Of a stretch of 64,000 bases of DNA, positions 13,543 to 16,405 are shown piece after piece (positions within the stretch are counted from its first letter, which is position 1; each line of letters starts with the position of its first letter). A model generated the notes under the pieces. That model saw only the letters and a list, made by a program, of their open reading frames with translations. It was not told the DNA's origin and made no database searches. The stretch is from Escherichia coli. Lineage in GTDB: Bacteria; Pseudomonadota; Gammaproteobacteria; Enterobacterales; Enterobacteriaceae. Both the position numbers and the translations under genes were made by a program. The stretch lies in NCBI RefSeq assembly GCF_003334315.1, contig NZ_QOWR01000012.1. One strand, written 5' to 3'.

Positions 13543-14676
13543 CTAATCCAGCCGACGTTTGGTTTTCAGCCACGTCAGGCCGATAAACATCACCGCCGAA
13601 GCGATCAAAAACAGCACGTTTACCACCAGCACCACTGGAATATTCCCGGCGAGGAACAGGCTTTGCAGGGTGCTGACGAAATAACGAGCGGGAATAATGT
13701 ACGTCACCGCGCGGATCACCGCGGGCATACTGTCGATCTGAAAAATAAAGCCGGAAAGCATAATCGACGGCAGAAAAGCCGCGTTCAGAGCGACCTGAGC
13801 GGCATTGAACTGGTTGCGGGTTATCGTGGAAATCAGCAGCCCCATCCCCAGGGTACTGAGTAAAAACAGGCTGGAGATAAAAAACAGAATCAGCAGCGAC
13901 CCGCGATACGGCACGCCGAGAATAAACACTGACACCAGCATACACAGCAACATCGCCAGCATCCCGAGAAAGTAATAAGGGATCAGCTTACACAGCAGCA
14001 GTTCCGTGCGGGTAATCTCCGTAGAGAGCAGAGCCTCCATGGTGCCGCGTTCCCATTCTCGCGCCACCACCAGCGAGGTGAGAATCGCGCCGATGACCGT
14101 CATGATGATGGTCACCGCACCCGGGATAATAAAGTGCTGGCTTATCGCCGCCGGGTTAAACCAGTAGCGGGTTTGTACATCAATAAGCGGTTCAAAAGTC
14201 TGCCCGTTGTCCTCCGCTCGCTGCATTTGCCAGATCTGCCAGATCCCTTCGACATACCCCTGCACAAAGTTAGCGGTATTCGGCTCACTGCCGTCGGTGA
14301 TCACCTGAATCGGTGCGGTGGCGTTGGCGCGCTCCATCTGTTCCGCAAAATCCACCGGAATAACCACCAGACCGCGAATTTTCCCCGCCTGCATTTTGGC
14401 GATCAGTTCCTGACGGTTATCGCTGATGGTGGCGTCGATGTAGGGCGAACCGGTCATGGTGTGGGTGAAATCCAGCGCCGCTTCGCTACGCTGTTCCAGT
14501 AAAATCCCGACCCGCAGCTTGCTGGAGTCGAGGTTAATGCCGTAACCAAAAATAAACAGCAGTAGCAGCGGGATCACTACCGCAATCAGCCAGCTACTCG
14601 GATCGCGAACGATCTGCCGCGTCTCTTTAACGCACAGCGCCCGTACGCGACGCCAGGACAGGATCGGGTTACTCAT
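13543..14676 (-). CDS. ybhS: ABC-2 family exporter permease YbhS
   Basis: 377-aa membrane ORF, paralogous to YbhR. Confidence 0.9.
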
Positions 14677-16405
14677 TGCTATGCTCCTTATCCCAGTCGT
14701 GGATCAACTGAATAAAGGCTTGCTCCATGGTGGGATCGGGTTGCTCGTCGTTGGCCGACTGCGCTTTCAAATCATCCGGCGTGCCGCTGGCAATTAATTT
14801 CCCACGGTACACCAGGCCGATGCGGTCGCAATATTCTGCTTCATCCATAAAGTGAGTGGTGACCATCACCGTGACGCCTTTCTCTACCATGCTGTTGATA
14901 TGCAGCCAAAATTCGCGGCGGGTGAGGGGATCAACGCCGGACGTTGGTTCGTCGAGAAACAGAATGTCCGGTTCATGCATCAGCGAACAGGCCAGCGCCA
15001 GCCGCTGTTTAAAACCTAATGGCAGTTCATCGGTCGCGTGGGAGGCGATACTTTTCAGGCCAAATGCCTCGCTCATACGGGAGATTTTTTCGTTCTGCGC
15101 CCGACCGCGTAAGCCATACACACCAGAGAAAAAGCGTAAATTCTGTTCGACCGTCAGGTTGCCGTAGAGCGAAAATTTTTGCGCCATATAGCCGAGATGC
15201 TGGCGCGCTTTACCGGAACTCTCTTTCAGATCCATCCCCAGCACCAGCGCCTGGCCGGAAGTCGGCACCAGCAAACCGCACATCATCTTAAAGGTGGTCG
15301 ATTTACCCGCGCCGTTTGGCCCCAGCAAACCAAAAATCTCCCCACGTTTAACGGCAAAGTTGACGTGATCGGTGGCGGCAAAATCACCAAATTTCTTGGT
15401 CAGTTCTTTCGCTTCGATCACCGTCTCGCCGGGTGTGCCTTCTACCGTATGCAATATTGCACCCAGCGGCGATTCTGAGGTTCCGGCACCGCCCAGCAAA
15501 TCAATAAACGCATCTTCAAAACGCGGCGTAGTTTCGTTGATGTTGATTTCCGGCATCCCGTCGGCATGGCGAATATCGTCTGGTGTGGCCTCTTTTTTGA
15601 GGATCAGACGTACCGATTTCCCCTGAATCATGCCGTCGCTGACCTGCGGCAGTTTCAAGGCGCGTTGCAACAGTTTGCGGTTGCCCTCGTGTGGACTGGT
15701 CATCAGAAAGCTGCGTCCGGCCATGGTTTGTGTCAGGGCTTTTGGTTCTCCCTGATACAGCAACTCGCCTTCGTTCATCAGTAACACGTCACGGCACTGC
15801 TCGGCTTCGTCGAGATACGAGGTACTCCAGAGGATTAACATCCCTTCGCCCGCCAGCTCATGCACCATCTGCCACAGTTCGCGCCGTGAGATAGGGTCAA
15901 CGCCGACGCCGGGTTCATCGAGCAGCAACACTTTCGGTTCGCCCACCAGGGTACAGGCCAGGCCGAGTTTTTGTTTCATCCCACCGGAGAGCTTGCCCGC
16001 CAGGCGTCCGGTAAACGGCCCAAGAGACGTAAACTCCAGCAGGCGAGCAAAAGTTTGCTTACGTGCCTCGCCGGTGACGCTGCGCAAATCCGCGTACAGA
16101 TTGAGGTTCTCCATCACCGTGAGATCTTCATACAGACCAAATTTCTGCGGCATATAACCGAGCACGGCGTGCAGCGCGCCGTCGTTTTTGATCGGATCAA
16201 AGCCAATCACCGTGGCACTGCCGCTGTCGGGTTTCAGTAATCCCGCCAACATCCGCATCAGCGTGGTTTTACCTGCACCGTCCGGCCCCACCAACCCCGT
16301 CACATAACCGGCGTGAATGGTACAATCGAGCGGCGCGACGGCGGGCTTGTCCATGCCCGGAAAGCGTTTTTCCAGGCCGTTCAGCGTGATAACGGCATCA
16401 TTCAT
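14669..16405 (-). CDS. ybhF: ABC transporter ATPase YbhF with two fused nucleotide-binding domains
   Basis: Two Walker A motifs ([18 protein letters not shown]) and two LSGG signatures in one ORF; start taken at [10 protein letters not shown] (578 aa). Confidence 0.9.

Follow-up and report, generated by a model that had tools for sequence, protein, structure and literature searches.

Does an exporter that draws both of its ATPase domains from one polypeptide receive two equivalent ones? We examined this question in a 64,000-nucleotide stretch of Escherichia coli DNA (NCBI RefSeq assembly GCF_003334315.1, contig NZ_QOWR01000012.1; hereafter the window), where the gene ybhF encodes a protein of the ATP-binding cassette (ABC) type with two fused nucleotide-binding domains (NBDs). 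An initial annotation of the window had described YbhF as two complete ABC ATPase domains, with two Walker A and two signature motifs in one open reading frame (ORF), and had called this an unusual architecture. The presence of two NBDs in one chain and both Walker A motifs stood up to closer analysis. The completeness of the domains and the second signature did not: NBD1 lacks the switch histidine (His), and only NBD1 has the signature LSGGM, NBD2 reading LPLGF at that position. Neither NBD is thus fully canonical, in the sense of having both an LSGGQ-type signature and an H-switch His. The initial annotation had added that, if one NBD lacked catalytic residues, the supposed duplicate would be a degenerate site; this is essentially what the alignments revealed, but the Walker B glutamate (Glu) of NBD1 is kept.

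The ORF read as a 578-aa (amino acid) YbhF coincides exactly with the ybhF coding sequence (CDS). It starts with ATG, and its translation is identical to RefSeq WP_000996107.1 (100%). The Pfam ABC_tran (PF00005) check proposed for it detected two domains, at residues 25–165 (E 4.6e-27) and 346–489 (E 1.3e-30), and each of them contained a Walker A P-loop and a Walker B Asp-Glu pair, as expected of a tandem-NBD protein. The two NBDs were 38% identical over 227 residues in a self-alignment (E 1e-54), which was gap-free through the motif region. In the alignments, Ser196 of NBD1 took the place of H518 of NBD2 and of the switch His of the ABCA4 and ABCA7 NBDs, and LPLGF of NBD2 aligned with LSGGM of NBD1 and with LSGGM/YSGGN of ABCA3. 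As controls, we read the same positions in six other NBDs of the window (GlnQ, GsiA N1/N2 and YbiT N1/N2; all NCBIfam-confirmed), and found the switch His in 6/6 and an xSGG[Q/M/E] signature in 5/6.

The two deviations lie in different NBDs and converge on one ATP site. A composite ATP site consists of Walker motifs A and B plus the A-, Q- and H-loops from one NBD, completed by the signature of the other NBD (PMC7756269), and because of this pairing Ser196 and LPLGF both fall in site 1. In particular, site 1 is made of the Walker A motif, E164 and Ser196 of NBD1 together with LPLGF of NBD2, and has neither the switch His nor the Ser-Gly of the signature. Site 2 combines the Walker A motif, E486 and H518 of NBD2 with LSGGM of NBD1 and is canonical throughout. 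YbhF thus has the pattern by which a degenerate site is recognised, with deviations in both NBDs converging on one composite site and the other site canonical.

We then asked how widely this pattern is shared. A first homologue search returned only Enterobacteriaceae with at least 74% identity, a set unfit for a conservation test, and was replaced by a HMMER search run exhaustively over 1.84 billion representatives of 50%-identity clusters, which gave 18,714 matches at E<=1e-30. From the best 150 matches we kept the 112 that had two P-loops and at least 480 aa (36–59% identical to YbhF), and these, with YbhF itself, formed a family set of 113 sequences. Motif states were read from the columns of a MAFFT alignment instead of by a regular expression for the NBD2 signature, which had missed 48 of 120 close relatives owing to sequence variation. 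At the NBD1 switch position we found Ala in 40 sequences, Ser in 32, Pro in 29 and His in only 2, with the NBD1 signature LSGGM in 112/113 and the NBD1 Walker B Asp-Glu in 113/113. NBD2 retained the switch His in 109/113 and the Walker B Asp-Glu in 109/113, and its signature was non-canonical in 109/113. Within that signature, position 462 was mostly Pro (90 sequences; Ser in 16), position 463 was Leu in 46 and Gly in 16, position 464 was Gly in 106, and position 465 was hydrophobic in most sequences. The joint pattern, with both the NBD1 switch and the NBD2 signature deviant, was present in 105/113. As far as aligned sequences can tell, the asymmetry is a conserved trait of the family and not an E. 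coli quirk.

A strain-specific mutation or a pseudogenisation was also considered for Ser196 and LPLGF, and was ruled out by the family-wide states and by the intact locus: at least 80% of positions 12000–19500 was found in 5424 of the 5426 complete E. coli genomes.

The two sequences with a switch His in NBD1 both carry xSGG in NBD2 (Fisher p ~0.001), and such a joint reversion would be expected if both positions line one site. One of them, P0197, has 2621 aa and probably represents a eukaryotic protein of the ABCA type; it is also the single exception among the 14 members of at least 800 aa, which are NBD-NBD-permease fusions and show the asymmetric pattern in 13 cases. The other is P0234 (L010 4985–9655, GCA_051439375.1), in which the NBD1 switch His and the NBD2 signature are both canonical. 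Its locus has an adaptor gene upstream; on the downstream side, small toxin-antitoxin-like genes (HicB-like and PIN-domain) take the place of permease genes.

A sequence search of solved structures (PDB) found no chain that was YbhF, YbhS, YbhR or YbhG itself. The closest relatives there were ABCA1/3/4/7 for the YbhF NBDs (E 1e-70) and an ABCG23-like protein for the permeases, and the best relatives of the adaptor YbhG included an RND-type fusion protein, EmrA and MacA. The AlphaFold2 model of YbhF, built on a 65-sequence alignment, had a single confident arrangement (pLDDT 95.3, pTM 0.91). In Foldseek searches, it superposed at full length on fused double-NBD chains (Mycobacterium tuberculosis OppD, 8j5s_D, TMq 0.74; DppD, 8wda_D, TMq 0.71 and TMt 0.78) and also on the NBD pairs of ABCA proteins, while a single NBD (4yer) reached a TMq of only 0.38. 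The superposition of the model on fused double-NBD chains supports a predicted intramolecular, head-to-tail NBD1:NBD2 dimer. Between the NBDs lies a small alpha/beta domain, which ends in a helix with the motif FEDAFIDLL; a similar helix, MEQAFIQLI, follows NBD2, which keeps the helix only. The (L/F)ED-x-F helix is conserved, with LEDxF / EDAFI present in the family consensus at the end of the inter-NBD domain. By analogy with the domains that follow the ABCA NBDs, this domain could be regulatory or could clamp the dimer.

Based on these results, the best overall explanation, and one in which we have good confidence, is that the locus encodes an ABC-2 efflux pump that works with a periplasmic adaptor and draws its power from a fused, asymmetric ATPase. 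One YbhF chain would supply both NBDs, folded head-to-tail beneath a YbhS/YbhR heterodimer, in a putative 1:1:1 stoichiometry of YbhF, YbhS and YbhR. ATP at both sites would close the NBDs, and hydrolysis would take place mainly at site 2, which its intact motifs mark as the probable main hydrolytic site. Site 1 would hold ATP, hydrolyse it slowly or not at all, and tune the cycle, a structural or regulatory role of the kind seen in asymmetric ABC transporters. YbhG presumably links the pump with a channel in the outer membrane; the E. coli operon carries the adaptor gene but no outer-membrane factor gene, and the channel is presumably TolC. Purified YbhF hydrolyses ATP, with a Vmax of ~192 nmol/min/mg (PMC7190983).

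Several points weigh against this explanation, or at least against its stronger form. Degenerate sites are usually marked by loss of the Walker B Glu (PMC7544095, PMC7756269), and YbhF does not show it: E164 is kept and is invariant in 113/113 sequences. The Walker A Lys (K46) of NBD1, its Q-loop (105/113) and its A-loop aromatic are conserved as well. Site 1 may still turn over, because its Walker B Glu is kept. The proximity of Ser196 and LPLGF in the dimer is deduced from the general geometry of NBD dimers, and the papers found, among them the biochemical study of YbhF (PMC7190983), contain neither site-specific mutants nor nucleotide-trapping data. The covariation of the two positions rests on two sequences, and leaving out P0197 raises p to 0.03. 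With its Walker B Glu retained, site 1 is described here, from its residues, as non-canonical rather than provably dead.

The retained residues can also be taken at face value, and YbhF would then be a genuine tandem duplicate whose two ATPase sites are fully competent and equivalent, one powering each permease. Both NBDs do keep the Walker A Lys, the Q-loop Gln, the Walker B Asp-Glu (with the invariant E164 in NBD1) and the A-loop aromatic, and the published descriptions of YbhF state that every NBD motif is conserved (PMC7190983, PMC9951867). Our alignments differ from those descriptions, since Ser196 and LPLGF deviate, and do so family-wide: the switch His is missing from NBD1 in 111/113 sequences, the NBD2 signature departs from the canonical form in nearly as many, and both changes map to one composite site. 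The six control NBDs of the window, with their near-complete set of switch His and xSGG motifs, point the same way, and we consider equivalent sites improbable. If, instead, YbhF dimerised with a second YbhF, like with like (NBD1:NBD1', NBD2:NBD2'), each complex would contain four NBDs, each site having either a good signature but no switch His, or the His but a deviant signature, and every such site would retain part of the catalytic set. This arrangement is very improbable in our judgement, given the single confident intramolecular arrangement of the model and its superposition on solved subunits whose fused NBDs dimerise within one chain. The joint reversion of the NBD1 switch and the NBD2 signature speaks against it as well. 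So do RbbA-type fusions, in which two NBDs and one transmembrane domain (TMD) form one chain and a second TMD has a separate gene: they set the count at two NBDs per two permease domains, which argues for one YbhF per YbhS/YbhR pair. An intramolecular, asymmetric NBD pair thus remains our preferred reading. That the two NBDs are not equivalent is a useful correction, and separate Walker A mutations should give unequal phenotypes.

A different doubt concerns the cargo. The architecture may stand as proposed, with a lipid or envelope component or an ion (Na+/Li+) as the native substrate and the drug phenotypes as side effects. Among solved structures, the NBDs are closest to the lipid transporters ABCA1/3/4/7 and the permeases to an ABCG23-like protein, and the operon is near-universal in E. 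coli, as expected of a housekeeping role; Feng et al. also reported Na+/Li+ tolerance when YbhF alone was overexpressed (PMC7190983). NBD likeness, though, says little about cargo, and the evidence for Na+ comes from the ATPase subunit alone, a claim that has been questioned (PMC8277102). Against a non-drug cargo, deletion of ybhF alters the efflux of tetracycline and ethidium (PMC7190983), and the operon is controlled by CecR, which responds to cefoperazone and chloramphenicol (PMC12998191). We regard a non-drug native cargo as possible but unlikely. As a separate observation, Feng et al. took a 'NatA domain' of the ATPase subunit as a sign of Na+ transport (PMC7190983), and the best NCBIfam matches of YbhF were of the RbbA and DrrA types, not a NatA model.

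We compared YbhF with transporters in which one ATP site is known to be degenerate. In CFTR/ABCC7, TAP1/2, ABCC1, TM287/288, Pdr5 and ABCG5/G8, the deviations are likewise split over the NBDs and converge on one composite site (PMC7756269). In the full-length human transporters the degenerate site is site 1 (P-loop of NBD1 with signature of NBD2), as in YbhF. CFTR also pairs a changed H-loop with an altered partner signature. The same pairing as in YbhF is found in Pdr5 (PMC7756269). Most degenerate-site transporters also lose the Walker B Glu, which YbhF keeps, and most are exporters of type I (ABCB/C-like) in which the TMDs are fused, unlike YbhFSR with its separate ABC-2 permeases and periplasmic adaptor. 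The ABCA proteins, which gave the best PDB sequence match for both YbhF NBDs, resemble YbhF in the extra small domain after each NBD. ABCA transporters and YbhFSR both belong to the ABC-2 related permease class. ABCA proteins differ in that each is one chain, longer than 1700 aa, with giant domains on the extracellular side and no adaptor protein, and the ABCA3/4/7 NBDs in our alignment have a canonical xSGG and switch His in both NBDs, unlike YbhF. GsiA, M. tuberculosis OppD and DppD resemble YbhF in that one chain with two NBDs serves two different permease subunits (TMq 0.67–0.74 for OppD/DppD). They are, however, importers that use binding proteins and whose permeases have an unrelated fold, and the GsiA NBDs are fully canonical in signature and switch His.

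Closer to YbhF in organisation is the paralogous YhiI-RbbA-YhhJ system of E. coli, which likewise consists of an adaptor gene, tandem NBDs and ABC-2 permeases, with NBD pairs that are 40–41% identical. RbbA of E. coli K-12 has the same asymmetry, with LSGGM and an Ala at the switch position in NBD1, and LPLGI and the switch His in NBD2; it differs in having the first permease fused to the double NBD (911 aa). YbhF passes TIGR01188 (DrrA-type / ABC-2 associated ATPases; 450 bits against a cutoff of 312), and its partner permeases are of the ABC-2 type. An assignment of YbhF to RbbA itself (NCBIfam NF033858) was rejected: the score was 516 bits against a cutoff of 1050, the match reached only to ~507 of the 909 profile positions, and YbhF has no hydrophobic segment; it is thus a sister of RbbA. 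MacAB-TolC is likewise an ABC-powered pump with a periplasmic adaptor, and YbhG is distantly related to MacA (E 4e-09). In the MacB/FtsX type, the NBD is fused N-terminally to an FtsX-type permease. YbhFSR has been filed under MacAB-TolC (section 5.7 of PMC8277102). We ruled out a MacB-family pump on the Pfam and NCBIfam results, as YbhS and YbhR match only ABC2_membrane Pfam families, with no FtsX/MacB match, and the NBDs are on a separate protein.

We further propose, with somewhat more doubt than conviction, that YbhF and RbbA may represent a large and ancient clade of bacterial ABC-2 exporters, linked to adaptors and equipped with an intrinsically asymmetric ATPase. Its members would combine one consensus site with one conserved non-canonical site (no switch His, LPxG-hydrophobic for LSGGQ, catalytic Glu kept), which would bind ATP as a latch or regulator, and this would be an origin of the 'degenerate site 1' design independent of that of CFTR, TAP and MRP-type exporters. 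YbhF is a soluble protein that can be purified and has ATPase activity (PMC7190983), and has no solved structure in our sequence search, so it could serve as a simple bacterial model of how a non-canonical site controls the consensus site in ABC-2 type exporters.

The layout itself is common, and the claim that it is unusual has to be dropped. The window alone contains three tandem-NBD proteins, YbhF, GsiA and YbiT, and the cassette recurs in yhiI-rbbA-yhhJ and in distant homologues. GsiA is annotated as the ATP-binding subunit of a glutathione ABC importer; gsiA (54926–56914, + strand) encodes a fused double NBD with the signatures LSGGM and FSGGQ and both switch His canonical, and its open frame runs 40 codons upstream of the start in the NCBIfam model. 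YbiT (43350–44975, + strand), an ABC-F protein, has a non-canonical signature in its first NBD (VAPGW), LSGGE in the second and the switch His in both, and is a second case of NBD asymmetry in the window. The order adaptor, double NBD, ABC-2 permease, ABC-2 permease was found on long contigs around the distant YbhF homologues P0134, P0157 and P0168, and P0121 has its first permease joined to the ATPase in one chain; identity of the distant homologues with the cassette to YbhF was 41–56%. A TolC-like OEP gene adjoins the cassette in three of the four long-contig loci (P0121, P0134, P0157, P0168). P0173 and P0220 lie on contigs of 2–4.5 kb, which give little gene context. In one further locus (L008 1–9950; GCA_005938675.2, VCCH02000102.1), a YbhGFSR-like cassette stands divergently, back to back with an adaptor and an RbbA-like fused cassette (913 aa), so both paralogous forms co-occur outside E. 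coli.

The locus is the known E. coli cecR-ybhGFSR efflux-pump operon, and its gene, two NBDs, two permeases, adaptor and regulator have already been described for E. coli K-12. Published accounts of YbhGFSR (YbhF UniProt P0A9U1, cited in PMC8277102; Yamanaka 2016, cited in PMC12998191; Feng 2020, PMC7190983) give the same sequence, gene order and regulator. The two-NBD composition of YbhF has been published (PMC7190983), and so has the {TMD}2-{NBD}2 arrangement. A full-text search of open-access papers and bioRxiv found no discussion of the asymmetry of the YbhF sites, and the family-wide asymmetric ATP site, with its clear experimental prediction, is the modest value that remains.

Positions 12000–19500 (7.5 kb) were 100% identical in DNA sequence to E. 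coli strain HS30-1 (NZ_CP029492.1). In the RefSeq annotation, the order on the - strand is cecR-ybhG-ybhF-ybhS-ybhR, with ybhQ and rhlE on the + strand and ybhG labelled 'hlyD'. The near-identity to the RefSeq protein and the cecR-ybhG-ybhF-ybhS-ybhR synteny beside rhlE identify the protein as a YbhF orthologue. The neighbours named by the initial annotation were all recovered as described: ybhS and ybhR encode paralogous ABC-2 permeases (27% identity, BLASTP E 6e-45; both match PF12698/PF01061), and ybhF is preceded by ybhG and by the TetR-family regulator gene cecR, each scoring above its NCBIfam cutoff and present as a RefSeq CDS. YbhS has hydrophobic segments at residues 29–47 and then in a cluster from ~177, and YbhG has a single N-terminal hydrophobic anchor (residues 6–24). 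The coordinates of all features are listed in Table 1.

Table 1. Genes of the cecR-ybhGFSR operon, and domains and motifs of YbhF, in window coordinates.
Feature	Positions	Strand	Description and basis
ybhF	14669-16405	-	soluble ATPase with two fused NBDs; ORF, RefSeq CDS, 2x Pfam ABC_tran
ybhS	13543-14676	-	ABC-2 permease, 377 aa; Pfam ABC2_membrane_3 E 5e-39
ybhR	12426-13532	-	second ABC-2 permease, 368 aa; Pfam ABC2_membrane_3 E 5e-51
ybhG	16398-17393	-	periplasmic adaptor (membrane-fusion protein); NCBIfam NF002939, 605 bits vs cutoff 393; RefSeq CDS
cecR (ybiH)	17396-18067	-	TetR-family regulator; NCBIfam NF008587, 417 bits vs cutoff 365; RefSeq CDS
NBD1 (~residues 1-230)	15716-16405	-	
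NBD1 Walker A	16265-16288	-	GPDGAGKT, residues 40-47
NBD1 Q-loop	16145-16147	-	Q87
NBD1 signature	15977-15991	-	LSGGM, residues 139-143; canonical
NBD1 Walker B	15914-15931	-	VLLLDE, with E164
NBD1 H-switch (H-loop) position	15818-15820	-	Ser196, His expected; alignment
Inter-NBD alpha/beta domain	15431-15715	-	residues 231-325; AlphaFold2 secondary structure, pLDDT mostly >90
NBD2 (~residues 326-578)	14669-15430	-	
NBD2 Walker A	15299-15322	-	GPNGAGKS, residues 362-369
NBD2 Q-loop	15179-15181	-	Q409
NBD2 signature position	15011-15025	-	LPLGF, residues 461-465; non-canonical; alignment
NBD2 Walker B	14948-14965	-	ILFLDE, with E486
NBD2 H-switch	14852-14854	-	H518; canonical

The regulator gene cecR is the first gene of the operon and is divergent from rhlE. 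A promoter and terminator scan of positions 11900–18400 was uninformative: it gave fewer promoter-like sites than shuffled sequences, and the terminator-like hairpins that it detected were all intragenic. At the other end of the operon, ybhR (- strand) and ybhQ (+ strand, 12054–12464) converge, their 3' ends overlapping by 39 bp (12426–12464), which leaves no space for a terminator between the two genes. Finally, the end of ybhG and the start of ybhF share 8 nt (ATGAATGA), and the end of ybhF and the start of ybhS likewise share 8 nt (ATGAGTAA); these start/stop overlaps suggest that ybhG, ybhF and ybhS are translationally coupled.

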